A stretch of 23,229 bases of DNA from Enterobacteria phage phi80, in the sequence record FN582354; one strand, 5' to 3'. The translations under genes and the position numbers were made by a program. The stretch's first letter is position 1. Each line of letters starts with the position of its first letter. The notes under the pieces are model-generated. The model ran no database searches. It was not told where the DNA came from and saw nothing but the letters and a program-made list of their open reading frames with translations. Positions 2,634-23,229 of this stretch are shown one piece after another.

Positions 2634-2839
2634 TGGCAACACAGACTGAACTGGATGCCGCGCGCGCTGCGTTACATGACCTGATGATGGGAAAGCGCGT
2701 GGCGACGGTACAGAAAGACGGTCGAAGAGTGGAATTTACAGCTACCTCAGTCACCGATCTCAAAAAGTATATTGCTGACCTTGAATCTCAGGTTGGTACC
2801 ACATCACGACGCCAGGGGCCTGCAAGGTTTTACGTATGA
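2633..2839 (+). CDS. W: head-tail joining protein W
   Basis: 68 aa, same length as lambda gpW. TAATG overlap with the A stop. Expected position between A and the portal gene. Confidence 0.93.
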
Positions 2840-5752: not shown

Positions 5753-5761
5753 GAGGCTATC

Positions 5762-6094
5762 ATGGCAATTACTGAAGTTTTCACACATAACCAGCCGCTC
5801 GGTAACAGCGACCCGGCGCACACTGCGTATGGTCCTGGCGAACTGACGGCTTCCACTCCAGCCATGACGCCGCTCATGCTGGATGCCACTTCTGGCAAGC
5901 TGACCGTCTGGGATGGTGCTCATGCTGGCGCGGCAATGGGCATCCTGGCTGTAACCGCAGACCAGAACAGCGCGGAACTGGCATATTACAAATCTGGCTC
6001 TTTCCGTATTGAAGATGTCCTCTGGCCATCTGCCGTCACCGACGACAACATTAAACGTAACGCGTTCGCCGGTACTGCAATCAGCATCGTTTAA
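5762..6094 (+). CDS. D: head decoration protein D
   Basis: 110 aa, same length as lambda gpD. RBS AAGAGG at 5751-5756. Motifs [26 protein letters not shown] match lambda D (recalled). Confidence 0.96.
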
Positions 6095-6123
6095 TCCGCA
6101 TTTCTACAACCATCATCATTCAT

Positions 6124-6148
6124 AAAAGCCGCTTGCGCGGCTTTTTTT
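6124..6148 (+). terminator. intrinsic-terminator-like hairpin between D and E (GC stem, 4-nt loop, flanked by an A-run and a T7 run)
   Basis: Stem AGCCGC (6127-6132) pairs with GCGGCT (6137-6142), loop TTGC, followed by TTTTTTT (6142-6148). A near-identical hairpin is present at the same place in lambda (recalled). Confidence 0.5.
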
Positions 6149-6161
6149 ACGGGAAAAATCT

Positions 6162-7187: not shown

Positions 7188-7212
7188 ATTCGTCTCCGTC
7201 AAACTGGCATAA
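7163..7212 (+). repeat. perfect 25-bp tandem direct duplication (2 copies) spanning the E stop codon
   Basis: ATTCGTCTCCGTCAAACTGGCATAA occurs at 7163-7187 (last 7 codons of E plus TAA) and again, exactly, at 7188-7212. Confidence 0.9.
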
Positions 7213-7257
7213 CTTCCCCCAGTGGCCCTGTCGGGCCACCTTTCTGGAGTATTTCCC

Positions 7258-7674
7258 ATGACAGAGAAAGAAAAGCTGATCGCTCGCCTGAATGACCTTG
7301 GCACTCAGCTTAACCGCGAGGTCAGCACCAGCGGCACGATTCAGGAACTTACGATGCGTATTGCTGAGCTGGAAGAGGAGCTGGATGGTGATGCCAGTTC
7401 GATTGACGGTGAAAACGGAGAGAAGAATGCTCCCGACAGCACCGACAGCACCGACAGCACCGACAGCGATGTAGATGGCACGGAAAAAGTAAAAACCGAA
7501 GCGGTCACAACGGATGACCGGGTATCAGTAGAAACGCTGGTGACCTTGCACATAAACGCGCTTCACGCCACGCGTAACGAGTCTGTGTCTATTGTCGAGC
7601 CTGGTGTCGTTATCCGCGTGACTGACGTAGAGGCTAACGACCTGATATCTCGGGCGCTGGCCCGGGAAATCTGA
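7258..7674 (+). CDS. FI: DNA-packaging / head assembly protein FI
   Basis: ATG at 7258 with GGAG 8 nt upstream. N-terminus MTEKEKLIARLNDLGTQLNREVS and the ...LVTLHINALHATRNE... region resemble lambda gpFI (recalled). The track ORF starts at an upstream GTG (7222), which I consider less likely. Confidence 0.85.
   Translation: MTEKEKLIARLNDLGTQLNREVSTSGTIQELTMRIAELEEELDGDASSIDGENGEKNAPDSTDSTDSTDSDVDGTEKVKTEAVTTDDRVSVETLVTLHINALHATRNESVSIVEPGVVIRVTDVEANDLISRALAREI
7435..7467 (+). repeat. 9-bp tandem repeat (GACAGCACC, about 3.7 copies) encoding a (DST)n linker inside FI
   Basis: GACAGCACC at 7435-7443, 7444-7452 and 7453-7461, then a partial copy GACAGC at 7462-7467. Translates to DSTDSTDSTDS. 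Confidence 0.85.
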
Positions 7675-7685
7675 CAGGGGGCCTA

Positions 7686-8039
7686 ATGGCTGATTTCGAC
7701 AATCTTTTTGATGAATCGATGGCGCGCGCGGATACCACTATACGTGGATTGATGGGCGCAGAGGCAAGGATAACCTCAGGATCTTTATCCGGCGTCACGC
7801 TCCGGGGGGTCTTTGACGATCCAGAGAACATTGGTTACGCCGAAGTGGGGATCCGAATTGATGGAACCAGGCCGACGTTGTTTGTGAACACATCGGATGT
7901 TAGCGGGCTGGAAAGGCTGGATACGCTGAAGGTTAACGGGCGTGAATTTTGGGTTGATCGCGTTGGTCCGGATGATTGCGGGTCCTGCCATGTTTGGCTG
8001 GGTAGTGGATCACCTCCCGGCGGTTCGCGGCGTCGTTAA
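7686..8039 (+). CDS. FII: head completion protein FII
   Basis: 117 aa, same length as lambda gpFII. N-terminus MADFDNLFD and motif VFDDPENI..., C-terminal RRR match lambda FII (recalled). Confidence 0.95.
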   Translation: MADFDNLFDESMARADTTIRGLMGAEARITSGSLSGVTLRGVFDDPENIGYAEVGIRIDGTRPTLFVNTSDVSGLERLDTLKVNGREFWVDRVGPDDCGSCHVWLGSGSPPGGSRRR

Positions 8040-8048
8040 GGAGCATTC

Positions 8049-8630
8049 ATGTCGATAAAAGGTCTTGAGCAGGCGATCGCTAACCTGGATAGCCTGGACA
8101 GAAAGGTTCCCAATGCCAGCGCATGGGCTGTGAACCGGGTTGCTGCTAATGGCGTCTCGGTTGCCGTCCGAAGGGTGGCGAAAGAAACGGTAGCCGGTGA
8201 TAACCGCGTTTCGGGGATACCCGTAAAGCTGGTACGACAAAGGGTGCGAATCAACAAAGCCTCGGCGTCAGGGCACTCAGCGGCCCGAATTAAGGTTAAC
8301 CGGGGCAATCTTCCCGCCATCAAACTCGGTGCCGCGCAGGTCAGGGTGACGAATCGAAAGGGCCCGCTGGTTCGAAAAAGTAGCGTGTTAAGAATTGGCC
8401 GTTATGTTTTTCGCGACGCCTTTATCCAGCGCCTGGCGAACGGCCGCTGGCACGTCATGAAGCGAATTGCAGGAAAAAGTCGTTATCCCATCGACGTGGT
8501 CAAAATTCCATTGTCCGCGCCCCTCACAATTGCTTTCGAAGCAGAAAAGAAACGCATGCTTGAAGAGGAAATGCCAAAACAACTTGGCTATGCCCTCAGG
8601 CAACAACTGAGGTTGCATCTGACACGATGA
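8049..8630 (+). CDS. Z: tail completion protein Z
   Basis: 193 aa. Position between FII and U. Motifs IKGLEQA, ARIKVNRG, NGRWHVMKRIAGK.RYPIDVVKIP, LGYAL..QLR resemble lambda gpZ (recalled). Confidence 0.9.
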   Translation: MSIKGLEQAIANLDSLDRKVPNASAWAVNRVAANGVSVAVRRVAKETVAGDNRVSGIPVKLVRQRVRINKASASGHSAARIKVNRGNLPAIKLGAAQVRVTNRKGPLVRKSSVLRIGRYVFRDAFIQRLANGRWHVMKRIAGKSRYPIDVVKIPLSAPLTIAFEAEKKRMLEEEMPKQLGYALRQQLRLHLTR

Positions 8631-9025
8631 AACACACTCTCATTCGCCAGAAAATTATTGATGTGCTTGAAGAGGCCATCGGGAACGACGTCATGTTTTT
8701 TGACGGGCGTCCTGCTGTCATTGAGGAGGAGGATTTTCCTGCCGTTGCGGTCTATCTGACCGATGCGGAGTATACCGGGGAAGAACTTGATGCCGATATG
8801 TGGGCGGCAACGTTACATATTGAGGTCTTCCTGTCCTCGCAGGTACCAGATTCCGAACTGGATGAATGGATGGAAAGCCATATTTATCCTGCCCTCGCTG
8901 ACGTACCCGGTCTCGATTCACTGTTAACGCTCATGGTTCCACAAGGCTTCGATTATCAGCGCGATGATGCGATGGGGTTGTGGACTTCCGCCGATATGAA
9001 ATATTCAATCACTTACGAAATGTGA
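8627..9025 (+). CDS. U: tail terminator protein U
   Basis: 132 aa. ATGA overlap with Z. Motifs [50 protein letters not shown] match lambda gpU (recalled). Confidence 0.95.
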
Positions 9026-9032
9026 GGAAAAC

Positions 9033-9776
9033 ATGCCAACACCTAATCCACTCGCTCCTGTAAAAGGTGCCGGTACCACGCTCTGGCTGTACACCGGAAC
9101 GGGTAACGCTTTCGCCAACCCACTCTCTGATATCGACTGGAATCGCCTGGCGAAAATCAAAGAACTCACGCCGGGCGAAATGACCGCAGAATCGTATGAC
9201 GACACCTACCTCGACGACGAGGACGCCGACTGGAACGCGACCGCTCAGGGGGCAAAATTTGCTGGCGACACCTCTTTCACCCTCGCCTGGAAGCCGGGAG
9301 AAGAAGGGCAAAAAGACCTGGTCGCATGGTTTATTGATGGCTCAGTACGCTATTACAAAATCAAATATCCGAATGGTACCGTCGACGTTTTCCGCGGTTG
9401 GTGCAGCAGCCTGGGTAAAGCCATCCCGGCAAAAGAGGTTATTACCCGCACAGCGAAAATCACCAACACCGGCAAGCCGGAGCTGGCTGAAGAAAGCGGG
9501 AGCCCGAATATCCCCGTCACCGGCGTCACGCTCGATAAAGCCACGGCAAGCGTGGCCGTCGGTGCAACCACAACGCTCAATGTGACGGTTAACCCTGCCA
9601 GTGCCTCAGATAAATCCTTCCGCGTATCGTCAGCTGACCGGGCCAAAGCCACAGTTACGGCTAACGGTAACACACTGACGGTCACCGGCGTGGCGGCAGG
9701 CACCGCTGACATTATTGTAATGACCAGCGACGGTAATTTCGTTGCGGTCTGCAAAGTCACCGTAACTGCAGCGTAA
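9033..9776 (+). CDS. V: major tail tube protein V with C-terminal Ig-like (Big_2-type) domain
   Basis: 247 aa. RBS GAGGA upstream. N-terminal region [46 protein letters not shown] matches lambda gpV. The C-terminal about 90 aa ([15 protein letters not shown]...VTVTAA) has the character of the non-essential Ig-like domain. Confidence 0.95.
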
Positions 9777-9786
9777 GGAAGGACGC

Positions 9787-10218
9787 ATGTTTTCGAAAAA
9801 AGAGAAGTTCACCTGGCAAACAGAATCCCTGACCATCTTCGAACTGTCGGCGCTTCAGCGTATTGAGTTCCTGACGTTTATGGCCGCAGAGGAAAGGGCC
9901 GTCAGTGCTGACAGCGAGGGCATCAGCGATCAGGAAATGACGGCCAGGCTGATTGGCTCAAATATTCGCTGCGGTGCGCGTTTGATCGCGATGTCTTTGT
10001 GGCATAACGATCCGGCCGGCACGGATGTGGAAACGTTATATCAGCAGGTGCTGAGCGGCTGGCCGCCGGAGGCGATCGGTAAAGCAGAAATGGAAATAAA
10101 GCTGCTCTCCGGCATGCTCGTTCCGGTTGATGAAGACAACGCTGCCGATCCAGATGGCTCAACGGAGGCCGAAAGCGCAGAAACCGTTACGGCGGAAAAG
10201 CCCTTGCCAGCGAGCTGA
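9787..10218 (+). CDS. G: tail assembly chaperone G (zero-frame product)
   Basis: 143 aa, between V and H. Motif [10 protein letters not shown] matches lambda gpG (AMSLWHN). Ends just past a slippery heptamer. Confidence 0.9.
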   Translation: MFSKKEKFTWQTESLTIFELSALQRIEFLTFMAAEERAVSADSEGISDQEMTARLIGSNIRCGARLIAMSLWHNDPAGTDVETLYQQVLSGWPPEAIGKAEMEIKLLSGMLVPVDEDNAADPDGSTEAESAETVTAEKPLPAS

Positions 10219-10541
10219 AGTTTGTCCTGAATCTGGCGCGCGAGTTCGGGCGACCCGACTGGCGCGCCATGCTGGCTGGAATGACCTCCAGTGAGCTGGG
10301 CGACTGGCACCAGTTCTACCGGGATCATTATTTTCAGGACGCGCAGCTCGATGCGCATTTCTCAGAGCTGCTTTATTCCATCTCCACTCTTTTCTTCCGC
10401 GATCCGGAACTTACCCCCGCACATTTCAGCCTGCTTTCTCCTTCGGATAGCGTCATCAGCGATGATGAGCCGGATGATGACACGCTGATGACCGCCGCCG
10501 AGGGGATCACAGGAGGTATCCGATATGGCCCAGCAGATTAG
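9787..10541 (+). CDS. GT: tail assembly chaperone G-T fusion made by programmed -1 ribosomal frameshift near 10194-10200
   Basis: The -1 frame is open from 10134 (stop TGA at 10131-10133) to the stop at 10539-10541. After the shift it encodes ...[21 protein letters not shown]...GGIRYGP, matching the lambda gpT part of G-T (recalled). G is in frame 1 and T in frame 0, consistent with a -1 shift. Confidence 0.75.
10194..10200 (+). other. candidate -1 frameshift slippery heptamer G GAA AAG (lambda uses G GGA AAG)
   Basis: Only X-XXY-YYZ-like site inside the 85-nt window where both the G frame and the T frame are open (10134-10218). The AAG Lys codon re-pairs to AAA. The P-site GAA to GGA re-pairing needs a G:U pair, so the heptamer is non-canonical. 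Confidence 0.55.
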
Positions 10542-13500
10542 CGATCTGGTTATTAAGCTGGATGTTGACCGCGCCACCTTCAGCGAGCAGGTCGCCCGAA
10601 TCAAAGGGCAACTGACAGGAATGGCGGATGAGTCTGATAAAGTTCAGGCGCGAATGCAGCGTGCAGCGGACCGTCAGAGCGCGGCATTAAAGAGCGTGGG
10701 CGACGCTGGCGCGGCGGCTGCCGCAGATATGAAAGCCCGACAGTCTGCTGCAACGGAAGGGCTGGCCAAAGACTGGCAGAACGTTTCTAAGTCCGTTGAT
10801 GAAACTCACCGCCGCGTGACCGAGCTTAATCAGCGTATGCGGGAAAATGACGGACAGGCCGCAGCGCTTGCCCGCCGTCAGGATGAACTGGCGGCATCCT
10901 TTTTCCGCCAGATTGACGGCGTTCGCCAGCTCAATGGTGAAACGCAGTCGCTTGCGAACGTGCAGGCGCGCTTTCGTGCGGCAAGGGCACAGGGCAATAT
11001 CACCCAGCAGGATTATCTCGCCCTGATTTCCCGCACCACGGCCAGGCAAAAAGAGCTGCAGATCATAGAGGAAAAATCGGCCGCCGCGCGTACCCGATTC
11101 CTCAGTCAGCTGAAGCAACAGGTCGCAGAGCAAAAACTCTCCGGTACCGAGTTGCTGCGCATGAAGGCGGCGCAGGTTGGTGCAAGCGATGCGGCTGAGG
11201 TCTATATCCGCAAGCTCGAGGCTGCCAAAGTGGCCACGCACGGTCTGGGCCTGAAAAGTGCCGCAGCGCGGCAGGAACTGGGGATACTGATCGGCGAGGT
11301 CATGCGCGGTAACTTCGGTGCACTGCGCGGCTCCGGGATCACGCTGGCGAACCGGGCAGGATGGATAGACCAGCTGCTGTCGCTGCGCGGGCTTGGGATC
11401 GCCGGCATGGTTGGTGGTATTGCCGCGGCGGTTTACGGGCTGGGTAAAGCCTGGTATGACGGCAGCAAAGAGTCCGAGGAATTTAACAGGCAGCTGATCC
11501 TGACCGGGAATTACGCCGGGAAAACGTCCGGACAGCTACAGGCACTGGCGCGCTCACTGGCAGGTAATGGCATCACACAGCATGCTGCTGCAGGTGTGCT
11601 GGCGCAGGTTGTCGGAAGTGGTGCGTTTAGCGGTAATGATGTCAGCATGGTGAGCAATGTTGCTGCCAGGCTGCAGCAGGCAACCGGGCAGGCCGTCGAC
11701 GAAACCATCAACCAGTTTAAACGCCTGAAGGATGATCCGGTTAATGCAGTCACAACGCTCAACGATTCGCTGCATTTTCTGACGGCCACGCAGTATGAAC
11801 AGATTGCCTCTGCTCAGGCGATGGGAGATACGCAGAAAGCATCAGAGCTTGCCATGCGCGCATATTCTGATGCGGTCATTCAGCGGGCCGGGGCGGTTGA
11901 GGAAAATCTTGGCTCCCTCGAAAAAGCCTGGAACTGGGTGAAGAATGCGGCCTCAGGCGCGTGGGATGCGATGCTGGGCATAGGGCGTAATCCTGACACC
12001 GCGATGAAGCGCCAGGACTCTTTTGCTGAATGGCAGGCAGCAGAGAAAGAGTACCGTGCTCTGTCCGGCAATCTCAAGGTTGATCCGGACTATGCCGGTA
12101 ACAACGTTCTGCAAAAGGCAGATGCGGAAAGGCTGAGAAACGCGCGCCAGCAGGTAGAGCTTAAGAAGCAGGCTTACGATCTTGCCGATAAGCAATATGC
12201 CCAGGAAGGGCTGGCAGCTGCCAGGGAAAAAATGCGGACGGAACAGCAGACACAGGCAGTCCGGACCCAGCAGCAATTTAATCAGATGGTTGAATCCGGG
12301 GCGACGGCGGCAGAAAAACGTGCCCTTGCGGAGAAAAAACTCAATCAGCTTATCGCTAAAAACCGCCAGGATGCGAAAGACGGCATCGCCACGTTGTGGA
12401 CTGAAAAGGACATAGCGGCAGCACGCGCCGGTATTAAAAAGAAGTGGAAGGATCCCAAAACGCCGAAAGGCAAAAGCTATTCAACGCCAGCCGGGGATAA
12501 AGCTGAAGAAAAAGCGCAGGCTGAACTTCTCACCCTTCAGGCCCAGCTTAAAACGCTCGAGCAGCATACCAGCGTAAACGACGTCATAAGCAAACAGCGT
12601 CAGGATCTCTGGCAGACTGAAAATCAGTTCACCGTTCTGCAGGAGGCCGCTGGGCGTCGTCAGCTTACGGCGCAGGAAAAATCCCTGCTGGCGCACAAGG
12701 AAGAAACGCTCGAGTACAAGCGGCAGCTGGCCGACCTGGGCGATAAGGTTGCCAGGCAGCAAAAGCTCAACCAGCTGACCGACCAGGCCGTGAAGTTTGA
12801 GCAGCAGCAAAAAGCCGCCAGGGCGGGCCTGCAGGCTCAGTCTGAGGGGCTATCCACCCGCGAGGCCGGGCGACAAACCACCCTGCAACGTCTCAGCGAG
12901 AGCTATTCATATAATCCTCAGGCGCAGCAAAAGGTTCTGGAAGAGCAAAGGGCGACGTTCGAGGCTGAAGATGCCCTGCGCGCAAACTGGCTGGCCGGTG
13001 CGAAACAGGGCTGGGCCGAATATCAGGATTCAGCGACAAACGTTTTCAGCTCCGTTCAGCAGATTTCGCAGGCAACGTTCAGCGGGCTGGCTGGCCAGCT
13101 TACCAGCCTGACGACAACCGGGAAGGCGAGCTTCCGGGACTTCACCAGCTCAATCCTCAAAATGATTGTGTCCGTTATCAACCAGCTGCTGGTGGCTTAC
13201 ACCATCCAGAGCGCAATGGGCTGGGTGAGCGGCGGGGCGAAAGCCTCCTCTGCAGGTCAGTCATTCGCGGTCCAGTCATACCGGCCACAGGGTTTTGACG
13301 TGGGCGGTTTTACCGGGCACGGCGGCAAGTACGAGCCAGCCGGTATCGTTCACCGCGGGGAATTCGTCTTCACCAAAGAATCAACCAGCCGCATCGGCGT
13401 GGCTAATCTCTATCGCCTGATGCGCGGGTATGCCTCGGGTGGTCTGGTCGGCGGCGGGAACGCAGCCGGTGCTGGCATGGGCGGGATTAGTGTTTATGCC

Positions 13501-13662
13501 CCAGTCAGCATCAGCCAGCAGGGGAGTGACGGAAGCATAAATCAGGCGAACGCCACGGGGACGGCGAAACAGCTGCAGGCGATTGTTCAGCAGACAATCA
13601 CCGAGCGACTGAAAAAAGAAATGTCCGCGGGCGGCGTGCTTTATTCGAGGAGGACACAGTGA
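10525..13662 (+). CDS. H: tail tape measure protein H
   Basis: 1045 aa. RBS AGGAGG at 10511-10516. Long alanine/glutamine-rich, coiled-coil-like sequence with a glycine-rich C-terminus ([22 protein letters not shown]...), typical of lambdoid tape measure proteins. Position between G-T and M. Confidence 0.95.
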
Positions 13663-13997
13663 CGGACACGTTTACCTGGCGCACGCGAAAAACAGCGCAG
13701 GGCACTGAAACAGCCCGAACGCTGCAGGCCCAGTTCGGGGATGGCTACAAACAGATAGCGGGGATGGGGATCAACGACAAACAGGAAACGTGGAACCTGG
13801 ACTGGACGGGCACCAGACAGGAGGCGGCTGCGCTGCGCGCTTTCCTGATGTCTCACGTTACTAAATCGTTCTGGTGGACCACTCCATGGGGTGAAAAAAA
13901 GCTGTTCAGAATGAAGGCCGATTCGTTCAGCGTTTCTTTCCCTACCGGGAAAAAAGCCACTGTGGCCTTCACTTTTGAACAGGCGTTCGCGCCCTGA
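13659..13997 (+). CDS. M: minor tail protein M
   Basis: 112 aa. GTG start overlapping the H stop (GTGA), RBS GAGGAGG upstream. Motifs FGDGY, WNLDW and WWTTPWGEK parallel lambda gpM (recalled). Confidence 0.92.
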
Positions 13998-14016
13998 TTT
14001 TCTCGAAAAACACTGA

Positions 14017-14042
14017 AAGCTGCCTCCGGGCGGCTTTTTTTT
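14017..14042 (+). terminator. intrinsic-terminator-like hairpin with T8 tract in the M-L intergenic gap
   Basis: 7-bp stem AGCTGCC (14018-14024) pairs with GGCGGCT (14029-14035) with one G:U, loop TCCG, followed by eight T (14035-14042). L starts at 14054. Confidence 0.5.
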
Positions 14043-14053
14043 ATGGGGGGAGT

Positions 14054-14791
14054 ATGAGTTTTACGGCAGACATACAACAGCTTGAGCCCGGCAGCGTTAT
14101 TCAGCTGATTGAGATCGACGGCACTGAATTCGGTATGGATCAGGTGCTGCGTTTTCATGCGCACAATATTCAGGAAGAGGGGTGGGCAGCCTTCGCCGCA
14201 GAAAATCTGCCCGCCATTATCTGGCAGGGAAACCAGTACGATCCCCATCCCTACGAACTTAAGGGGATGGAGTTATCGAGTACAGGTTCCCAGCCAACGC
14301 CCACGCTGTCCGTCGGGAACGTCGGAAACTATGTCACCGCGCTGTGTCTTGAATATGACGATATGGTCAGGGCTAAGGTCAAAATCCATACCACGCTTTC
14401 GAAGTATCTCGATGCCGCCAACTGGAAAAACGGTAATCCGGGTGCCAGCCCGGCCGATGAGCGCGTACAGCTCTTTTACGTCAATGCCAAAACCGCAGAG
14501 ACGCGTGTACAGGTTGATTTCGAGCTGTGCTCTCCTTTCGATATTCAGAGCCTGCAGCTGCCGACACGGCAGATTACGCCTGTCTGCACCTGGTGTATGC
14601 GGGGCTGGTACCGAAGCGGGACTGGATGCGATTACAACGGCACGAAATACTTTACCAAAGACGGTACACCGACCGATGACCCGTCGAAAGATGTATGTGG
14701 CGGCCCGCCGCAGGATTGTCAGGATCGTCACGGCCCGGACGCGCCGCTGCCGTTCGGCGGTTTCCCGGCTGCAAACCTGCAGGGGAAATAA
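14054..14791 (+). CDS. L: minor tail protein L (tail tip complex)
   Basis: 245 aa. RBS GGGGGAG upstream. Cysteine-rich C-terminal region (CTWCMRGWYRSGTGCDYNG...CGGPPQDCQDRHG) and overall pattern resemble lambda gpL (recalled). Confidence 0.92.
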   Translation: MSFTADIQQLEPGSVIQLIEIDGTEFGMDQVLRFHAHNIQEEGWAAFAAENLPAIIWQGNQYDPHPYELKGMELSSTGSQPTPTLSVGNVGNYVTALCLEYDDMVRAKVKIHTTLSKYLDAANWKNGNPGASPADERVQLFYVNAKTAETRVQVDFELCSPFDIQSLQLPTRQITPVCTWCMRGWYRSGTGCDYNGTKYFTKDGTPTDDPSKDVCGGPPQDCQDRHGPDAPLPFGGFPAANLQGK

Positions 14792-14792
14792 A

Positions 14793-15512
14793 ATGCGTGA
14801 AAAATTGCTGGATGCTATCCGTCAGCACGTCGCTGCTGAATACCCCAAAGAAGCCTGCGGCCTGATTGTTCAGTCAGGCCCAGCAACAAATCTTTATTCC
14901 TGCCGCAACATTGCCGATAAGCCCGAGGAGACATTCACGCTCTCCCCGGAAGACCAGCTCGCTGCCCGCGCGCGCGGTGAGATCATCATGCTCATTCATT
15001 CCCATCCGGATGTGGTTCGGCTGGTGCCCTCGGAGCTGGACCGGATCCAGTGCGACTGGTCGGGGATTGAGTGGGGGATCATGTCCTGGCCGGACGGGGA
15101 TTTTTGTACGATTTCCCCGCGTGAAGACCGGGATTATGCCGGGCGGCAGTGGGTGCTGGGTTACGCCGACTGCTGGTCGCTTATCCGTGAATTTTATCTG
15201 CGCGAATACGGCATTGTTCTCGGCAATTATTCAGTACCTTACGAATGGTGGGAGAGCGGCAAAGAGCGGCTCTACGATGACAACTGGGAGCGTGAGGGGT
15301 TCGTTGAGATTGACGCCGGTGCTATGCAGCCCGGGGACATCATCATGATGAGTGTGCAGGCATCGGTGACCAATCACGCCGCTGTATATCTGGGTGATAA
15401 CATCATTCTCCATCATCTTTTCGGGCACCTTTCTTCGCGAACGCCTTATGGAAAATATTATCGCGACAGAACGGTCCGGGTGGTCAGGCATAAGGACAGA
15501 ATGCATGGTTAA
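14793..15512 (+). CDS. K: tail tip assembly protein K (JAB/MPN plus NlpC/P60-like domains)
   Basis: ATG at 14793, 1 nt after the L stop. JAMM-like motif E...HSHPD...S..D (IIMLIHSHPDVVRLVPSELD) followed by a Cys/His region (ADCWSLIREFY ... NHAAVYLG) as in lambda gpK. The 467-aa track ORF 14109..15512 is an out-of-frame extension through L. Confidence 0.92.
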   Translation: MREKLLDAIRQHVAAEYPKEACGLIVQSGPATNLYSCRNIADKPEETFTLSPEDQLAARARGEIIMLIHSHPDVVRLVPSELDRIQCDWSGIEWGIMSWPDGDFCTISPREDRDYAGRQWVLGYADCWSLIREFYLREYGIVLGNYSVPYEWWESGKERLYDDNWEREGFVEIDAGAMQPGDIIMMSVQASVTNHAAVYLGDNIILHHLFGHLSSRTPYGKYYRDRTVRVVRHKDRMHG

Positions 15513-16122
15513 GACGCTTATTCTCGAAGGTAAAATGGCAAAAAAATTCGGTAAACGCGTTCAGTTTGATGTTGCCGACCTGCGCGAGATGCTCAGGGCC
15601 ATGTGTTCACAGGTTCCCGGATTCAAAAAATATATGTCTGAAGCTCATATGAAGGGGATCCGTTTCGCCTTTTTTAACGGTGGCAACATTATCGGGCTGG
15701 TTGAGTTTGATATGACCCGCGGTGGAAGCGTGTACCGGATCGTGCCCGTTTATGAGGGGGCCAAAAGTTCGGGCGTCCTGCAGATAGTTGTCGGGGCTGT
15801 TGCGCTGGTCGCTGCATTCTTTACCGCTGGTGCGAGCATGGCAGCCTGGGGCGCGGCGATGAGTGCAACAGCTATCAGCGCCACGTCAATTCTGACAGGG
15901 GTCGGAGTGTCGATGATGCTGGGGGGCGTTGTCCAGATGCTCACGCCCCAGCCATCCTTCGGCGCGGGTAAATCTTCCAGCACGGACAACACGCCTAACT
16001 ATGCCTTCGGGGCGCCGGTCAATACCGTCGCTATGGGGCATCCTGTCCCCCTGGCCTACGGTCTGATCGAGGCTGGGGGAGCGATAGTCAGCGCCGGTAT
16101 GTACTCGAGCGATCAGCAATAG
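15505..16122 (+). CDS. I: tail tip assembly protein I
   Basis: ATG at 15505 overlapping the K 3' end, AAGGA about 8 nt upstream. Has a hydrophobic Gly/Ala-rich segment (VVGAVALVAAFFTAGASMAAWGAAMSATAIS), typical of lambdoid gpI. Position between K and J. An alternative start is the ATG of MAKKFGK about 30 nt downstream. Confidence 0.8.
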   Translation: MVKTLILEGKMAKKFGKRVQFDVADLREMLRAMCSQVPGFKKYMSEAHMKGIRFAFFNGGNIIGLVEFDMTRGGSVYRIVPVYEGAKSSGVLQIVVGAVALVAAFFTAGASMAAWGAAMSATAISATSILTGVGVSMMLGGVVQMLTPQPSFGAGKSSSTDNTPNYAFGAPVNTVAMGHPVPLAYGLIEAGGAIVSAGMYSSDQQ

Positions 16123-16150
16123 TGAAAATGCAACATAATAAGGATGAACG

Positions 16151-16178
16151 TTACATTGCAATCACCCTTGGTTATCAT
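16151..16178 (+). promoter_or_regulatory. candidate sigma70-type promoter for the I-J moron (-35 TTACAT, 16-bp spacer, -10 TATCAT)
   Basis: Hexamers read by eye in the AT-rich segment just downstream of the I stop. Not statistically scored. Confidence 0.3.
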
Positions 16179-16203
16179 GTCCAAAACGATGCCGATCAAG
16201 GAG

Positions 16204-16662
16204 ATGAAAGTGAAAAAATACGGTTTGGTCTTATTAGGTGTGCTCTTTATTTCAGGTTGTGCCCCACAAAATCAGAATAACAATTTACAAAAGCAATACG
16301 CTGATTTGGCAAATTGTCAAGAGGATAACATTACTATGCCAAAACAAATGCCGCATAGTAAAAAAGAGTTTGCTGAATTTTTATCTAAGGAAGCTCTTAA
16401 TGCCTCAGCAGATCAGTTCGTTACCCAGAAGCGTATAGAGATTCTGCAATTAGTTGGGTGGGATAATTCGGTTGCTGATGCAATAACGACATGTGGCGCT
16501 ACCAGAAAGAGCAAGCTGAAAGAAATTGGGTCTAATGTGTTTGAAACCATGAAAGCCAATACTAAAGACACAGAGGAACGTCGTGCTCTTGTTGAGGCTT
16601 ATAGTTCGTGGGAAGCTTATGTAACCAGTCAAACGCCACTCGCAAAACAGGACTTTGACTAA
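16204..16662 (+). CDS. moron-encoded lipoprotein of unknown function, inserted between tail genes I and J
   Basis: Signal peptide with lipobox: MKVKKYGLVLLGVLFISGC followed by APQ. AAGGAG at 16198-16203. Start is either ATG 16204 or GTG 16210; the track ORF begins further upstream at 16144. Mature part is about 135 aa, hydrophilic and helical-looking, with 2 Cys. Region is visibly AT-richer than the flanking tail genes. Confidence 0.7.
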   Translation: MKVKKYGLVLLGVLFISGCAPQNQNNNLQKQYADLANCQEDNITMPKQMPHSKKEFAEFLSKEALNASADQFVTQKRIEILQLVGWDNSVADAITTCGATRKSKLKEIGSNVFETMKANTKDTEERRALVEAYSSWEAYVTSQTPLAKQDFD

Positions 16663-16717
16663 AAAGTTAGTTATTACAAAAACATGTAATAAGACGCCAT
16701 CATTAATATTAACTAAT

Positions 16718-16741
16718 AACCCAGCTCAGGCTGGGTTTTTT
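16718..16741 (+). terminator. intrinsic terminator downstream of the moron lipoprotein gene
   Basis: Stem CCCAGC (16720-16725) pairs with GCTGGG (16730-16735), loop TCAG, followed by TTTTTT (16736-16741). Lies 13 nt upstream of the J start. Confidence 0.6.
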
Positions 16742-16753
16742 AATGGGGTAAAA

Positions 16754-19700
16754 ATGCAACTTCTCCATGGTGAAACCATCATACAGGGTGCAAAAGGGGG
16801 CGGTGGAAGCGCGCATACTCCGGTTGAGCAACCTGACGATCTGCTGTCGGTCGCAAAATTAAAAATGCTCATTGCCGTTTCTGAGGGAGAAATACAGGGC
16901 GACCTGACCGCTCAGAATATTTTCCTCAACGATACGCCGCTGGCAAACGACAGCGGGGAATACAACTTCAGCGGCGTGAAATGGGAGTTCCGTAAGGGCA
17001 CACAGGACCAGACCTATATTGCCGGGATGCCCCAGGTCGATAACGAACTGGCGGTTGGCACAACTGTCACCACCACCGCGCCCTGGACACGCCAGTTTAC
17101 CAATCTTTCCCTGGATGCTATCCGCATCAAGCTCAGCCTTCCGGTCCAGTATCTCTATAAAGATAACGGCGATATGGTGGGCACGGTCACCGAGTATGCG
17201 ATCGATTTATCAACGGACGGCGGCGCCTGGAAAACGGTTGTAAACGGCAAATTTGACGGAAAGACCACGACGGAATATCAGCGTGACCACCGTATCGATC
17301 TGCCAAAATCCACGTCCGGCTGGTCTGTCAGGGTCAGGCGTATTACGGCTGATGCCAGCGGATCAAATTCGAAACTGGTTAACGCCTTCAAGGTGTTTTC
17401 CTATGCGGAAGTCATCGACAGCAAGCTTCGTTATCCTTTAACCGCGCTCCTGTATGTCGAAGTGGACAGCAGCCAGTTCAACGGCAGCGCGCCGAAAGTG
17501 ACCTGTAAGATAAAAGGCAAGCTGATTAAGGTTCCGGATAATTACGATCCGATAACCCGAACCTATTCTGGCTCATGGTCCGGCGGGTTCAAAATGGCCT
17601 GGTCCAATAACCCCGCCTGGATATTTTACGATCTGGTTCTGGATGAAATTTACGGCATGGGCACGCGCGTGGATGCGTCCATGGTGGATAAGTGGGCTCT
17701 GTATTCAATCGCCCAGTACTGTGACGAAATGGTTTCCGACGGGGCCGGTGGCACCGAACCGCGTTTCACCTGCAACGTTTTCATTCAGAGCCAGGAGGAC
17801 GCCTGGCAGGTACTTAACGATCTCGCCGCGGTATTTCGTGGAATAACGTTCTGGGGCAACGATCAGATTTATGTCCAGGCAGACGTCCCGCAGGACGATG
17901 TTGACTGGGTTTATAACGCCTCAAATGTGATCGATGGGCTGTTTACTTATGCGGGCGGCTCATACAAGAATCGCTACAGCTCCTGCCTGGTGTCCTGGTC
18001 CGATCCGCAGAACCATTACAGCGATACCGTTGAGGGGGTTTACGATTCGGCGCTTGTAGAACGTTACGACGTCCGGCAGACGTCCCTGACCGCAATCGGC
18101 TGCACCTCGCAAAGTGAAGCGCACCGACGCGGTCGATGGGTATTGCTCTCCAATGCCAAAGACGGGACCGTATCGTTTGGCGTGGGGCTGGACGGTTATA
18201 TCCCTTTGCCCGCTGAAATTATCGGTGTCGCCGATCCTTTCCGTTCCGGCAAGGAGAACGGGGGACGCATCAGGGCGGTCAATGGCCGCCAGATTACGCT
18301 GGATCGAGAAATAGACTACGCGGCGAAAGACCGGCTGGTGGTTAACCTGCCTGACGGAAAAGCCCAGACGCGCACAATCAGCGCGGTGAGCGCAGATAAA
18401 AAAACGGTGACGGTGGCCACCGCATTTAGTCAGGCACCTGTGGCGGGTGCTGTCTGGGCGATAGACAGTGATAACCTCGCAATACAGTATTTCCGGGTCA
18501 CTTCAATTGCAGCTAACGACGACAGCACAGGCGGTTTCACTATTACGGCCGTTCAGCACGATCCAAACAAATACCGTTACATCGATGACGGCGTTCGGGT
18601 CGAGTCGCCCCCGATCACCGTCACGCCGATAAGCGTCCTGTCAGCGCCGAAGAATATCGTGGTGACTGAGAGCGATCATGTTTCACAGGGGCTGACGGTA
18701 GCAAGCCTGGACGTGTCATGGGATAAGGTAGAGGGCGCAATCCGGTACGTTGCCCAGTGGCGTAAGGACAACGGGGACTGGATAAACGTTCCGGTTACCA
18801 GCGCGCAGGGTTTCTCGGTTCAGGGCATTTATTCGGGCAGCTATGACGTGCGCGTCCGGGCGCTGAATGCGCAGGATACGTCGTCACCATGGGGGTACGG
18901 TGAAACAACTTATCTCTCCGGTAAAACGGGAAAACCGGGTACTCCGCTCAACTTTCTGGCGACCGAAGATGTGGTCTGGCATATCGACCTGACCTGGAAA
19001 TTTCCGGATGGCTCTGGCGACACGGCCTATACAGAGATTCAGCGCGCCACAACTGCCGACTACGCCAATCCTGAACTGCTGGTCCTGGTGCCGTACCCGG
19101 CTGCAGATTATCAGCATGGCCCCATGCCGGCCGGCGTTCGCCAGTGGTACCGCGCACGCCTGATTGACCGTATCGGTAACGCCGGGGACTGGACCGACTG
19201 GATCATGGGCACGTCCTCGATAGATGTCAGCGAAATAACTAATGACATTCTGGAGGATATGAAAGAGTCGGAAACGTTCAAAGACCTGATCGAGAACGCG
19301 GTGGACAGCAACGAAAAAATTGCTGGCATGGCTGACGAAATCAAAAACCATGCCGACGAGCTGGAGCAGCAGGCGAAAGATATACAGGAAAACGCTGACG
19401 GGCTGGCGCAGGCGGCGGTAAAAATCGATGAGATTTCCGTTTCAATGGACGGTATGACAGGAGGCGTGAAGAATTCGGCAATTGCGATAATCCAGAATGG
19501 GCTGGCGCAGGTTGTCAGTCGTCGTTCCCAGACAGCAACAAACGCCGGGAACAGTGCCAGTATAGACAGAGTGGATACTACGATTGCCGATACCAGCCAG
19601 GCGGTTGCTCGCGCGCTGGTGACGCTGGATGCTTCAGCTGGTGGGAATATCTCCAACTCTACCGATCTCACTGAAACTCTGGCCGATTTCACGCAGGCAT

Positions 19701-20233
19701 CGGCGACAAAAATTAACACCCTGACTGTTAAATCTGGCGAAAACAGTGCCGCGATAAATGTCAACGCACAGGATATCGCAGATGTAAACGGTAACCTAAG
19801 TGCGATGTACAACATCAAGGTTGGTGTCTCCAGCAATGGACAGTATTACGCCGCGGGGATGGGTATCGGCGTGGAGAATACGCCATCCGGCATGCAGTCG
19901 CAGGTTAGCTTCCTGGCTGACCGCTTCGCCGTCACCACGGCAGCCGGAAATAGCGTAGCTTTGCCGTTCGTGATCCAGAACGGGCAGACATTCATCCGGG
20001 CCAGCTTCATCCAGGACGGCACTATCAGCAACGCAAAGATTGGTAATTTTATCCAGTCGAACAATTATGTTGCTGGTTCTGCTGGCTGGAAGCTTGATAA
20101 AGGGGGGACGTTTGAGAACTACGGTTCGACTGCTGGTGAGGGAGCCATGAAACTGACAAATCAGACGATCAGCGTCAAAGATGGCAGTAATGTTCTTAGG
20201 GTGCAGGTTGGCCGATTAACGGGAGTATTCTGA
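16754..20233 (+). CDS. J: tail tip / central tail fibre protein J (host specificity protein)
   Basis: 1159 aa from ATG 16754 (the track ORF starts upstream at 16655, inside the moron terminator region). N-terminal two thirds are co-linear with lambda gpJ (recalled). Examples: KGGGGSAHTP versus lambda KGSSKGHTP, YDPITRTYSG, NNPAWIFYDL, KWALYSIAQYCDEMVSDGAGGTEPRFTCNV, FRVTSIAANDDSTGGFTITAVQHDP. C-terminal third is an expanded coiled-coil-like region. The protein ends without an obvious lambda-type receptor-binding domain. Confidence 0.93.
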   Translation: MQLLHGETIIQGAKGGGGSAHTPVEQPDDLLSVAKLKMLIAVSEGEIQGDLTAQNIFLNDTPLANDSGEYNFSGVKWEFRKGTQDQTYIAGMPQVDNELAVGTTVTTTAPWTRQFTNLSLDAIRIKLSLPVQYLYKDNGDMVGTVTEYAIDLSTDGGAWKTVVNGKFDGKTTTEYQRDHRIDLPKSTSGWSVRVRRITADASGSNSKLVNAFKVFSYAEVIDSKLRYPLTALLYVEVDSSQFNGSAPKVTCKIKGKLIKVPDNYDPITRTYSGSWSGGFKMAWSNNPAWIFYDLVLDEIYGMGTRVDASMVDKWALYSIAQYCDEMVSDGAGGTEPRFTCNVFIQSQEDAWQVLNDLAAVFRGITFWGNDQIYVQADVPQDDVDWVYNASNVIDGLFTYAGGSYKNRYSSCLVSWSDPQNHYSDTVEGVYDSALVERYDVRQTSLTAIGCTSQSEAHRRGRWVLLSNAKDGTVSFGVGLDGYIPLPAEIIGVADPFRSGKENGGRIRAVNGRQITLDREIDYAAKDRLVVNLPDGKAQTRTISAVSADKKTVTVATAFSQAPVAGAVWAIDSDNLAIQYFRVTSIAANDDSTGGFTITAVQHDPNKYRYIDDGVRVESPPITVTPISVLSAPKNIVVTESDHVSQGLTVASLDVSWDKVEGAIRYVAQWRKDNGDWINVPVTSAQGFSVQGIYSGSYDVRVRALNAQDTSSPWGYGETTYLSGKTGKPGTPLNFLATEDVVWHIDLTWKFPDGSGDTAYTEIQRATTADYANPELLVLVPYPAADYQHGPMPAGVRQWYRARLIDRIGNAGDWTDWIMGTSSIDVSEITNDILEDMKESETFKDLIENAVDSNEKIAGMADEIKNHADELEQQAKDIQENADGLAQAAVKIDEISVSMDGMTGGVKNSAIAIIQNGLAQVVSRRSQTATNAGNSASIDRVDTTIADTSQAVARALVTLDASAGGNISNSTDLTETLADFTQASATKINTLTVKSGENSAAINVNAQDIADVNGNLSAMYNIKVGVSSNGQYYAAGMGIGVENTPSGMQSQVSFLADRFAVTTAAGNSVALPFVIQNGQTFIRASFIQDGTISNAKIGNFIQSNNYVAGSAGWKLDKGGTFENYGSTAGEGAMKLTNQTISVKDGSNVLRVQVGRLTGVF

Positions 20234-20234
20234 A

Positions 20235-20537
20235 ATGGCTTATGGAATACAGACCTGGGATGCTTCAGGAAAACCCAACAACTATGGCATCAAACCCGTT
20301 TCCGTCGTTGGGCGAATACAGCTGGCTGCCGGGCAAACCTCCGGCAGCTGGTCTTTTACGGTGCCCTCAGGAATGAAAGTTGGTTTTGTTCTTTCACTTG
20401 ATGAAGGAGGTAACAGCGTAGGGCGGCGCATTGTCGCGTCAGGGAGCACAATAACCGTAAGCGCTGCATCTTCTGTAGGTCTGGGTAATTATCCGGCCTC
20501 AAAGTGTGAAGTGGTCGTTTTCATGGAGAAAGCATAA
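20235..20537 (+). CDS. hypothetical protein (100 aa), first of two coupled ORFs after J
   Basis: ATG 2 nt after the J stop, GGGAG about 9 nt upstream. Composition is rich in Gly/Ser/Val/Thr, suggesting a beta-rich fold. I recognise no family. Confidence 0.6.
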   Translation: MAYGIQTWDASGKPNNYGIKPVSVVGRIQLAAGQTSGSWSFTVPSGMKVGFVLSLDEGGNSVGRRIVASGSTITVSAASSVGLGNYPASKCEVVVFMEKA

Positions 20538-21211
20538 TGGCCGAATTTGGCGCGATGATATTAATGGACAACGGGAACCCATTTGTAACGCCCCAGTCAA
20601 CGCCTTTTTGTCTTTACGGCAAGTACACTTTCAACTCCTCTGCTAATGGCAGTTCGCAGCAGGTTGCTCAGAATATTCGATTAAATGCTGACTACCCTGT
20701 GATGGTATTTATCAGGACCACAAATACCGCCCAGCCCACGCCAGTAATATCTTACCGGAATGGAGGAAATGTATATGTCGCGGGGGTTAATCCCTATAAG
20801 TTGAGCTTCACGTTAACCGCATATATATTTGCCATATTTCCCCAGACGTTACCGAAATGGGGGATGGCCATCTGGGATGCGGCAGGAAAGCTGGTGCTCA
20901 CTAATGAGTCCCGGGTGTTGTCCGACCTACAGACAATTGGAACGCCTGGCGCAAACGGAGGGATAAATATCGATCAGACACAAAACGGGCCATGGGCTGT
21001 TGCACCTGCACAGCTTGGCCAAAGCATCGTTGTGAATAACTCAACCCGGCCTCCGACAATCTACACCATTAATGCTTATTCGGCGTGCAGGTTTGACGGG
21101 GCCAATACGAGGATAAACGCAGGGGGGACCTCCACTGGCACAGGCTCTCCGGGAGGGGTAACGAATACTGGAATTTCCTTAACCGCGATAAATACAGCGG
21201 CCTATGACTGA
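20537..21211 (+). CDS. hypothetical protein (224 aa), translationally coupled to the upstream 100-aa ORF
   Basis: TAATG stop/start overlap at 20534-20539, GGAG 8 nt upstream. Composition is rich in Thr/Asn/Gly/Ser, resembling beta-rich receptor-binding or fibre-like domains. No recognised motif. Confidence 0.65.
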   Translation: MAEFGAMILMDNGNPFVTPQSTPFCLYGKYTFNSSANGSSQQVAQNIRLNADYPVMVFIRTTNTAQPTPVISYRNGGNVYVAGVNPYKLSFTLTAYIFAIFPQTLPKWGMAIWDAAGKLVLTNESRVLSDLQTIGTPGANGGINIDQTQNGPWAVAPAQLGQSIVVNNSTRPPTIYTINAYSACRFDGANTRINAGGTSTGTGSPGGVTNTGISLTAINTAAYD

Positions 21212-21232
21212 TTGATCGTTTTGGGCGATCAA
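21212..21232 (+). other. 7-bp inverted repeat hairpin immediately after the stop of the 224-aa ORF
   Basis: TTGATCG (21212-21218) and CGATCAA (21226-21232) are reverse complements with a 7-nt loop. No T-tract follows. Three GATC sites are clustered within about 40 bp. Confidence 0.4.
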
Positions 21233-21322
21233 TAACTGATAATTGATCTATCAAACCAATTATACCCACCTCTTTCATGTTGGTATTGTCTAAGTTCATG
21301 AATACCTCTGGATACTATCAAA

Positions 21323-21556
21323 ATGAGAAAACTGATTATCTGCATGGCAGGCGCTGTCATGCTTACAGGATGCGCTGGCGTAATTGAGAAACAGGAACCA
21401 GTTTGCAGCGGCACTGCAATCGTTGGCGGTCAGGAAACTACGGTTCAGATTTACGGTGTGCGTAAACAAAACAACCAGACGCAGTACCGGGCTGGATATC
21501 CTTTCAGCTGGCGCTGGGTAAGTGCGAATACATTTACCGAAACAACCTGCAAATAA
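21323..21556 (+). CDS. small lipoprotein (77-aa precursor), Cor/Llp-like candidate superinfection-exclusion protein
   Basis: Signal peptide with lipobox: MRKLIICMAGAVMLTGC followed by AGV. Mature part about 60 aa with 2 more Cys. Preceded by an AT-rich intergenic region and followed by its own terminator. No obvious SD. Family assignment is inferred from size, lipobox and position, not from recognised sequence identity. Confidence 0.6.
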   Translation: MRKLIICMAGAVMLTGCAGVIEKQEPVCSGTAIVGGQETTVQIYGVRKQNNQTQYRAGYPFSWRWVSANTFTETTCK

Positions 21557-21577
21557 CCCACTACGCTTAAACATAAA

Positions 21578-21600
21578 CCTCGCTCCGGCGGGGTTTTTTT
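21578..21600 (+). terminator. intrinsic terminator downstream of the small lipoprotein gene
   Basis: Stem CCTCGC (21578-21583) pairs with GCGGGG (21588-21593) with one G:U, loop TCCG, followed by seven T (21594-21600). Confidence 0.6.
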
Positions 21601-21616
21601 ATTGCCTGGAGAAAAT

Positions 21617-22873
21617 ATGCTTTATAACACCGGCACCATCGCCATTAATAGAAATACCGCCACCGGGACGGGTACAAACTGGACGGCACCGGCCAGCCAG
21701 GTTCGCGCTGGCCAGACAATTATCGTGATGTCTAACCCGGTGCAACTGTTCCAGATTTCATCCGTGAACAGCGCCACGTCAATGACGGTTACGCCTGCCG
21801 CTTCCCCGGCGCTGAGCGGCCAGAAGTACGGCATTCTGGTATCAGATAATATCTCGGTTGATGGGCTGGCGCAGGCCATGTCGCAGCTTATCAAGGAGTA
21901 TGACGAGAATATTGGTGCGTGGGAGACGTTCGCCACAACCTCAGCCAACCAGAACATTACCGTTACGATCAATGGCACCAGTTTATCAATCCCGGCTCTT
22001 GGGAAATTACTGCAGAAGGGGAGCAACGGAGCTTTGCCGGTTAATCAAGGTGGTACTGGCGCACCCTCGGCATGGGAAGCCACAAAAAATCTAAAAACAT
22101 TAAGGACGATGGAGCGAAGATTTGGACCAGGTGATGAGCCAAGAGATGGCGGCTGGTCCAATACTATTGGTTTTGTGGTGGGGCAAACGTCCACAGGGGC
22201 AAATGGAGCGTTTGTTGATTTTACAAGTTTCGATCAGTCGGCCAGGCTACAGATCATTGGTTTTTATTCTGACTCTCAAAACCACAATGGTGTCGGGTAT
22301 AATCTGTGGCATCCCAACTTACAAACATGGTATCCATTCACAACGCTCAGGGATAACAGAAACACAACCGTAGATTCGAACGGTTTCATAAAGGTTGCAT
22401 CTCCCATTGTAAAGATATTCAGGGATGGTAGCTATGAAACGAATGAAGAGTCGGAGGGAATTGATGTTACCCACATAAATACAGGTGAGTATTTGATAGC
22501 AGGTTGCACCGGCCTTAATGCAGATGCAGCATGGGGAGGGATCGATGGTGGATTTGAAATTCCGGTAGACAGGAACAAGCTCGCGCGCATCTGGCTTGAT
22601 TATGAAGTGAATGCTGATGGCTCTGTTCTGGTAAAAACATATCACCGTACACACCCGAAAGCGCCTGAGTTTGCAAGAAACGAAATCAACGGGTTAACTA
22701 ATGGCGAGCCAGTAGACATTCCTGCAGATTCTTTTGTTTCCGCACGTGTTGAAATGCCCCCAGAAAGTATCTGGAACCAGCTTTCCGTACGTGTTGAAAT
22801 GCCACCAGATAGTATCTGGAACCAGCGACAGAATGATGCTTTGGAAGCAGACGTGCAGAAACCTACCTCATAA
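21617..22873 (+). CDS. putative side tail fibre / receptor-binding protein (Stf-like position)
   Basis: 419 aa from ATG 21617, GGAG 6 nt upstream (the track ORF starts at 21602). Thr/Asn/Gly-rich, fibre-like N-terminal half (NRNTATGTGTNWTAP..., NITVTINGTSLSIPALG, NQGGTGA). C-terminal half is visibly AT-richer and contains a 45-bp tandem repeat. Assignment rests on composition and position, not recognised identity. Confidence 0.6.
   Translation: MLYNTGTIAINRNTATGTGTNWTAPASQVRAGQTIIVMSNPVQLFQISSVNSATSMTVTPAASPALSGQKYGILVSDNISVDGLAQAMSQLIKEYDENIGAWETFATTSANQNITVTINGTSLSIPALGKLLQKGSNGALPVNQGGTGAPSAWEATKNLKTLRTMERRFGPGDEPRDGGWSNTIGFVVGQTSTGANGAFVDFTSFDQSARLQIIGFYSDSQNHNGVGYNLWHPNLQTWYPFTTLRDNRNTTVDSNGFIKVASPIVKIFRDGSYETNEESEGIDVTHINTGEYLIAGCTGLNADAAWGGIDGGFEIPVDRNKLARIWLDYEVNADGSVLVKTYHRTHPKAPEFARNEINGLTNGEPVDIPADSFVSARVEMPPESIWNQLSVRVEMPPDSIWNQRQNDALEADVQKPTS
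22737..22826 (+). repeat. 45-bp tandem direct repeat (2 copies, 3 mismatches) inside the 3' end of the fibre-like gene
   Basis: TTTCCGCACGTGTTGAAATGCCCCCAGAAAGTATCTGGAACCAGC at 22737-22781 versus TTTCCGTACGTGTTGAAATGCCACCAGATAGTATCTGGAACCAGC at 22782-22826. Encodes SARVEMPPESIWNQL / SVRVEMPPDSIWNQR. Confidence 0.85.
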
Positions 22874-22879
22874 GTAAAA

Positions 22880-22912
22880 CCGCCGCAAGTCGTATGCAAG
22901 AACGTGCGGCGG
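22880..22912 (+). other. hairpin (8-bp GC-rich stem, 17-nt loop) directly after the fibre-gene stop, with no T-tract
   Basis: CCGCCGCA (22880-22887) and TGCGGCGG (22905-22912) are perfect reverse complements. Confidence 0.4.
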
Positions 22913-23080
22913 CAGGCTGGCGTTCGTTCGATAGTGCGAGTATTGAATGATTTCCAGCCGTTACCGATTTTACTATGTTTTCAGTAGAACGCTTAGACAA
23001 AACTGAGGCGCACAAAAGCTTTGCACTGGACTGCAAGGTGTTGTGCTTCTCTGGAGTGCGATATGTTTGATGACAAAAAA

Positions 23081-23115
23081 TTAGCGCAAGAGGACAACAA
23101 ATCACCTTGCGCTAA
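23081..23115 (+). repeat. perfect 10-bp inverted repeat with 15-nt spacer in the AT-rich non-coding region
   Basis: TTAGCGCAAG (23081-23090) and CTTGCGCTAA (23106-23115) are exact reverse complements. The repeat lies inside a possible 27-codon ORF (23063-23146). Confidence 0.5.
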
Positions 23116-23229
23116 TGCTCTGCTACAGGTCACTAATACTATCTAAGTAGTTGATTCATATGACTGGATATGTTGTGTTTGTCGCATTATGTAGTCTATT
23201 TTTTAGACTAAAGATATTGTAATGCATTG

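Follow-up and report, generated by a model that had tools for sequence, protein, structure and literature searches.

The short gene between the open reading frames (ORFs) that follow J and the side-fiber gene is, by its sequence, phi80 cor, the type member and founder of the Cor family. It lies near the end of the window, i.e., the whole stretch of 23,229 nucleotides that was analyzed. Taking both parts of the reading jointly, we consider it very probable that this gene is a self-contained exclusion moron and that its product inactivates the receptor FhuA in a way similar to Llp of phage T5. To this explanation, our analysis contributes the identity of the gene, the lipoprotein features of its product, the purifying selection, the anatomy of the cassette, and the similarity in fold to Llp. 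The gene, its function, its position, and the relationship between Cor and Llp are all already known from literature and database annotation. phi80 cor is a textbook gene of lysogenic conversion and superinfection exclusion; all deposited phi80 genomes carry its annotation, and a likely kinship with T5 Llp has already been described in print. The present analysis confirms as correct a functional reading that had been made from the raw sequence, links phi80 Cor by an independent test of the predicted fold to the solved FhuA-Llp complex, and removes the sole claim to novelty in that reading, a paired or dual exclusion system. The features are listed in Table 1.

Table 1 Positions of cor, its cassette, neighboring genes, and lipoprotein genes in related phages (window positions unless a locus is named)
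Feature	Position	Strand	Description
morF, I-J moron	16204..16662	+	152-aa lipoprotein counted from MKVKKYG; lipobox ISGC; annotated as phi80 morF
J-type central tail fiber/host-specificity gene	16655..20233	+	annotated as PHI80_21; FhuA-recognizing partner
Two post-J ORFs (N15 gp22-like, 100 aa; gp23-like, 224 aa)	20235..21211	+	PHROG 557 and PHROG 425
Hairpin TTGATCG-n7-CGATCAA	21212..21232	+	at the left cassette edge, right behind the gp23 stop; predicted from the letters
Candidate extended -10 TGgTATTGT (TGnTATnnT)	21281..21289	+	about 34 nt upstream of ATG; proposed from conservation only
Minimal ribosome-binding element GGA	21310..21312	+	10 nt upstream of ATG; invariant in six aligned cor loci
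Rival candidate -10 TACTAT	21313..21318	+	annotated in the mEp213 record
cor	21323..21556	+	77-aa prolipoprotein; only sensible ORF in 21212..21600
Intrinsic terminator	21575..21600	+	9-bp G+C-rich stem (21575..21596), 4-nt loop, seven T (21594..21600)
120-aa lipoprotein gene in the cor slot of Eeyore	L012 6631..6993	-	MKRLFAAIFLLLAGC...; PHROG 25729
120-aa lipoprotein gene in the cor slot of Flotzy	L013 5814..6176	-	MKRLFAAIFLLLAGC...; PHROG 25729

Identity of the gene and distribution of the Cor family

Lipoprotein features: The interval 21212..21600 spans from the base after the stop of the 224-aa ORF (20537..21211) to the end of the T-run. The first-pass annotation had described a short gene with a clear LTGC lipobox in this interval, and such a gene is present; the full 77-aa sequence of its product is MRKLIICMAGAVMLTGCAGVIEKQEPVCSGTAIVGGQETTVQIYGVRKQNNQTQYRAGYPFSWRWVSANTFTETTCK. 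The N-terminus reads MRKLIICMAGAVMLTGC followed by AGV and has the features of a lipoprotein-type signal, with a positive start and a hydrophobic core followed by the lipobox. Residues 1-16 are the predicted signal peptide, and Cys17 is the predicted lipidation residue. The mature domain comprises 61 aa and includes Cys28 and Cys76. As a rule, a residue other than Asp at position +2 after the lipobox Cys directs a lipoprotein to the outer membrane. In Cor, the lipobox Cys is followed by a non-Asp residue at +2 (MRKLIICMAGAVMLTGC-AG), and sorting to the outer membrane is predicted. In the alignment of 29 homologs, Cys17 and Cys28 are near-invariant (at least 90%) and Cys76 is invariant, as are I43, Y44, Q52, T53, Y55, G58, P60, and F61, with the core QTQYRAGYPF (QTQY-AGYPF).

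Identity: The product is identical to phi80 Cor (AFV29164) in 77 of 77 residues (100%), and the phi80 record annotates the same ORF as "cor, phage superinfection exclusion protein Cor". The 1.5 kb around cor are 99.5% identical to phi80, and the whole window aligns with phi80 positions 1..22908 at 99.7%. FhuA is named as the receptor of phi80 (PMC10373560). Since the window, including J, shares this 99.7% identity with phi80, FhuA is assigned as the receptor of the carrier phage as well. Compared with the deposited phi80, the Cor protein, the position of the cassette, and the terminator are identical, and the differences lie outside the gene.

Family models: The NCBIfam equivalog model NF047972 ("phage exclusion lipoprotein Cor") matches with 140.9 bits (cutoff 31); residues 1-76 of Cor align with positions 1-76 of the 78-position profile. 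The match to PHROG 1119 ("Cor superinfection exclusion protein") has 7.1e-37. A Pfam search with Cor gave no significant family and only sub-threshold hits to DUF4223 and MiAMP1. Every testable defining feature of the Cor family is present in the product of 21323..21556. The earlier proposal that a lambdoid phage dependent on FhuA encodes an exclusion lipoprotein of the Cor type here is borne out by the complete identity to phi80 Cor and by the NF047972 score, and the comparison with Cor families proposed along with it succeeded for both models. The accompanying caveat, a match by architecture only, was wrong and is superseded because the sequence identity is complete.

Distribution: The gene order J, 100-aa ORF, 224-aa ORF, cor, terminator, and fiber gene is the standard layout. 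The placement of cor between J and the fiber gene is common to phi80, HK022, N15, HK140, HK225, the mEp phages (including mEp213 and mEp390), and others, and the gp22-like and gp23-like ORFs always precede cor in this cassette (phi80, HK022, N15, mEp phages). The lambdoid phages and N15 thus share the order gp22-gp23-cor-fiber with phi80. Among the 47 phage records with a match, 46 are matched over 80% or more of the 1.5-kb cassette. With tblastn, Cor homologs were found in 244 phage records; T1 is one of them, as are many T1-like phages. In the T1-like lytic phages, cor stands in another genome context than in the lambdoid phages. The Cor proteins of HK022, N15, and T1 belong to the same family and are 79%, 63%, and 37% identical to phi80 Cor, respectively. 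Together with the mEp167-type protein, they are allelic sequence variants of phi80 Cor whose published function is the same, inactivation of FhuA (PMC3594210). The HK022 record labels its cor as "moron gene product; phage exclusion".

Inactivation of FhuA and the comparison with T5 Llp

The phenotype of exclusion and FhuA inactivation is taken from the literature. Lysogens with Cor of phi80, N15, or HK022 are protected from FhuA-requiring phages via receptor inactivation, and Cor reduces the uptake of ferrichrome and protects against colicin M (PMC3594210, PMC11436027). Cloned cor alone was reported to be sufficient for exclusion (PMC11436027, PMC3594210). The mechanism of Llp is solved, and the one given below for Cor is a proposal. 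In the FhuA-Llp crystal structure, Llp is periplasmic and bound to a non-native conformation of the plug; upon Llp binding, the extracellular FhuA loops EL7 and EL8 fold inward and cover the site at which the phage binds, and the authors propose the same action for Cor proteins (PMC9586334).

We used PDB entries 8a60 (chain B) and 7qjf as reference structures, with the Llp sequence checked against PDB. The AlphaFold2 model of Cor, computed from a 29-sequence alignment, has a pLDDT >90 over the mature domain and forms a small five-stranded barrel. This predicted fold is the same as that of Llp in the FhuA-Llp crystal structure. When the Cor model was searched with Foldseek, Tudor and chromo barrels ranked above Llp. 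At the level of broad profiles, Llp matches PHROG 1119 with 1.1e-19 over its full length, which is the same PHROG that the Cor of the window matches. Llp and Cor each have the lipid Cys and two more Cys at matching positions: Cys11-Cys58 of mature Llp (PMC9586334) correspond to Cys12 and Cys60 of mature Cor. BLASTP of Cor against Llp gave no alignment, with hhalign, the Cor profile could be aligned with Llp in the signal peptide only, and Llp did not match the NCBIfam Cor model. PDB sequence searches returned nothing relevant with Cor alone or with the 29-sequence Cor profile, and the latter did not retrieve Llp. The comparison with Llp that the first-pass annotation had suggested was hence positive for the broad profile and the fold and negative for pairwise and narrow-profile similarity. 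Cor has the Llp fold but lies outside the narrowly defined Llp sequence family. In our reading, Cor is a distant Llp homolog that works like Llp, and by analogy, it would bind from the periplasm and cause loop closure.

The two genes differ in their setting. T5 llp directly adjoins the receptor-binding protein gene pb5, and Llp is made soon after lytic infection. Unlike T5 llp, phi80 cor is a conversion gene of the prophage type and lies about 1.1 kb downstream of J.

From these data, the following mechanism can be proposed. The cor gene would be a self-contained moron, with a probable promoter of its own, an ORF, and a terminator, which was inserted between the post-J genes and the side-fiber gene. 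Cor should first be exported, after which cleavage and lipidation would take place at Cys17. The small beta-barrel of 61 residues would bind the plug of FhuA from the periplasmic side, and a Cys28-Cys76 disulfide probably clamps the barrel. As in the case of T5 Llp, jamming of the plug may cause the extracellular loops to fold inward by an allosteric closure, which would lock FhuA in a state that is unable to bind the phage tail tip. Consequently, a phi80 lysogen would be resistant to phi80, T1, T5, and other FhuA-dependent phages as well as to colicin M, and the cost of this resistance would be ferrichrome uptake.

Another route, which we regard as rather unlikely, is that Cor acts via or together with other outer-membrane proteins (porins, OmpA) and alters the environment of FhuA or a step after adsorption, with no direct, Llp-like jamming. 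A participation of other outer-membrane proteins is suggested by the title of Arguijo-Hernandez et al. 2018, and according to a 2026 preprint, the way in which Cor acts at the molecular level has not been elucidated (bioRxiv 10.64898/2026.03.26.714494). The identity of only about 13% between Cor and Llp in the structural alignment also speaks for this route. We nevertheless prefer the Llp-like inactivation of FhuA.

morF and its pairing with cor

morF: A second lipoprotein cassette between I and J had been noted before, and it does exist. The product of morF starts with MKVKKYGLVLLGVLFISGC... and is a genuine lipoprotein that is predicted to reside in the outer membrane. In the alignment of its family, the lipobox Cys and two further Cys are invariant, and the structure model suggests a generic helical bundle. 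The protein belongs to PHROG 8179, a PHROG without assigned function. Searches of Pfam, NCBIfam, and PADLOC gave no match to morF, and there was no similarity to Cor, Llp, or any defense model; a full-text literature search for morF retrieved nothing relevant. Neither Cor nor morF nor the Eeyore lipoprotein is covered by a PADLOC model. Homologs of morF (about 60% identity) in prophages of Citrobacter, Enterobacter, and Salmonella lie between the tape-measure gene and M, and a place beside J is hence not characteristic of the morF family. Among 50,697 phage records, morF is found only in phi80, Eeyore, and Flotzy, and the latter two have no cor.

Possible swap points: In the cor slot, Eeyore and Flotzy carry a 120-aa lipoprotein gene on the opposite strand. 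Its product is unrelated to Cor, and PHROG 25729, to which it belongs, is without assigned function. It appears that different lipoprotein morons are exchanged at the junction between gp23 and the fiber gene. A wider proposal is that morF encodes a second envelope-directed exclusion or receptor-modifying factor and that, at both the I-J and the gp23-fiber junctions, lambdoid phages swap lipoprotein morons matched to their receptors. The unrelated lipoprotein in Eeyore and Flotzy would fit such swap points. An envelope-directed role for morF is at most conceivable, given that exclusion lipoproteins encoded in tail modules, each fitting the receptor of its own phage, are a known theme (PMC8594841, PMC11893012). 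The mEpimmI genes Lpp021/Lpp010 and the exclusion genes linked to receptor-binding proteins in Drexlerviridae are, like cor, small lipoprotein genes in a tail or host-recognition module that exclude phages with the same receptor; compared by description, they concern other receptors (OmpA, LamB, others) than Cor does. If the wider proposal were true, a phi80 lysogen would carry two independent lipoprotein barriers, but we consider it improbable.

Proposed dual exclusion: We give even less credit to the idea that cor and morF form a two-component or dual exclusion system in which each lipoprotein guards one receptor-recognition gene. Both products are predicted outer-membrane lipoproteins, a single phage carries both genes as morons in its tail region, and other phages are known to encode exclusion lipoproteins that match their receptor within tail gene clusters (PMC11893012). 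Against this, morF does not resemble known exclusion or defense proteins, its homologs in other prophages are not adjacent to J, morF and cor occur together only in phi80 among the phage records, and cloned cor suffices for exclusion according to the reports cited above (PMC11436027, PMC3594210). The pairing of morF and cor in phi80 is one mosaic combination of two independent morons and no conserved system, because morF is not tied to J, is not regularly paired with cor, and has no functional match. On present evidence, morF stands outside the cor system. The first-pass annotation had presented the paired cassettes, each beside a receptor-recognition gene, as a novel layout and a dual exclusion system. 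Its observation of two lipoprotein genes and its assignment of Cor function hold, and the paired layout has to be given up together with the restriction to architecture.

Prophage homologs: The prophage homologs of morF (8001..8483 in each of the loci L002-L006) adjoin a divergently transcribed gene for a 537-aa SNIPE/T5orf172/MUG113 protein, which resembles a defense-type moron. phi80 morF ends with ...QDFD, its stop overlapping the start of J, and all homologs run on with a conserved SKVxYYKNM tail.

Cassette signals, translation of cor, and differences from the deposited phi80 genome

Spacer: The 111 nt between gp23 (stop at 21211) and the start codon of cor have a GC content of 34-38% versus 53-58% in the flanking genes, in agreement with the AT-rich intergenic setting described before. 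We compared six cor loci in an alignment (phi80, mEp213, HK022, mEp390, ECP1, and the divergent N15), in which the hairpin at the left edge is mostly kept. Three GATC (Dam) sites are located within 35 nt (21214, 21227, 21245) versus 0.14 expected; not all of them are kept in HK022 or N15, and the cluster is not significant over the whole window.

Promoter candidates: A two-hexamer scan for sigma-70 promoters in the region upstream of cor gave no promoter. In the candidate extended -10, TG, TAT, and the last T are invariant in the six loci including N15, while the pattern TGnTAnnnT is found 7 times by chance on the plus strand of the window. TACTAT as a candidate -10 would place the transcription start at or beside the ATG, leading to a near-leaderless cor mRNA. 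A promoter for a leaderless mRNA that was picked by eye, TTGTCT-n18-GATACT-n6-ATG, matches at 8 of 12 positions; the conserved TGnTATnnT was preferred, and both are candidates. A Fur box seen by eye at GATAATTGATCTATCAA is a poor match to the consensus and was dropped.

Terminator: The predicted RNA fold of the hairpin after cor has -15.7 kcal/mol (z = -3.3 versus dinucleotide shuffles), and the hairpin is also annotated as a terminator in the phi80, mEp213, and mEp390 records. The earlier assignment of an intrinsic terminator with seven T was thus correct. The fiber gene starts at 21617 and is preceded by GGAG.

Translation: Compared with the HK022 and mEp390 alleles, dN/dS of cor is 0.07-0.16 (dS about 1.1-1.2; dN 0.09-0.13), and the cor protein is under strong purifying selection. 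Homologs form 113 clusters in a large protein database, which are mostly named Cor and come from Escherichia, Enterobacter, Salmonella, Klebsiella, Rahnella, and others. Because of this dN/dS and these clusters, we take cor, on the pattern of its conservation, to be a real and translated gene. The lack of an obvious Shine-Dalgarno sequence had been pointed out correctly and, with the promoter scan, could suggest a chance or untranslated frame, but this is hardly credible and was already ruled out by the conservation pattern in view of the low dN/dS at this dS, the 113 clusters that keep the lipobox and the cysteines, the conserved GGA, and the published exclusion phenotype (PMC3594210, PMC11436027).

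Post-J ORFs: In phage annotation, PHROG 557 is called "outer membrane protein" and PHROG 425 "membrane associated protein". Neither ORF matches a Pfam or NCBIfam family, and the first has a sub-threshold match to a tailspike C-terminal domain.

Differences from phi80: The window diverges from phi80 at about 22962..23229, where phi80 has the dinL/PHI80_26 region. With up to 98.9%, this part matches a stretch without annotation that many E. coli chromosomes contain (e.g., strains 81 and KTa005). As the end of the window matches this chromosomal stretch and not phi80, the window is, judged by its sequence, a phi80 variant or relative that differs from the deposited phi80 genome. Within the fiber gene, a 45-nt tandem duplication compared with the deposited phi80 (22737..22781) repeats VEMPPxSIWNQ... 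and lengthens the fiber protein from 403 aa in the deposited phi80 to 418 aa.
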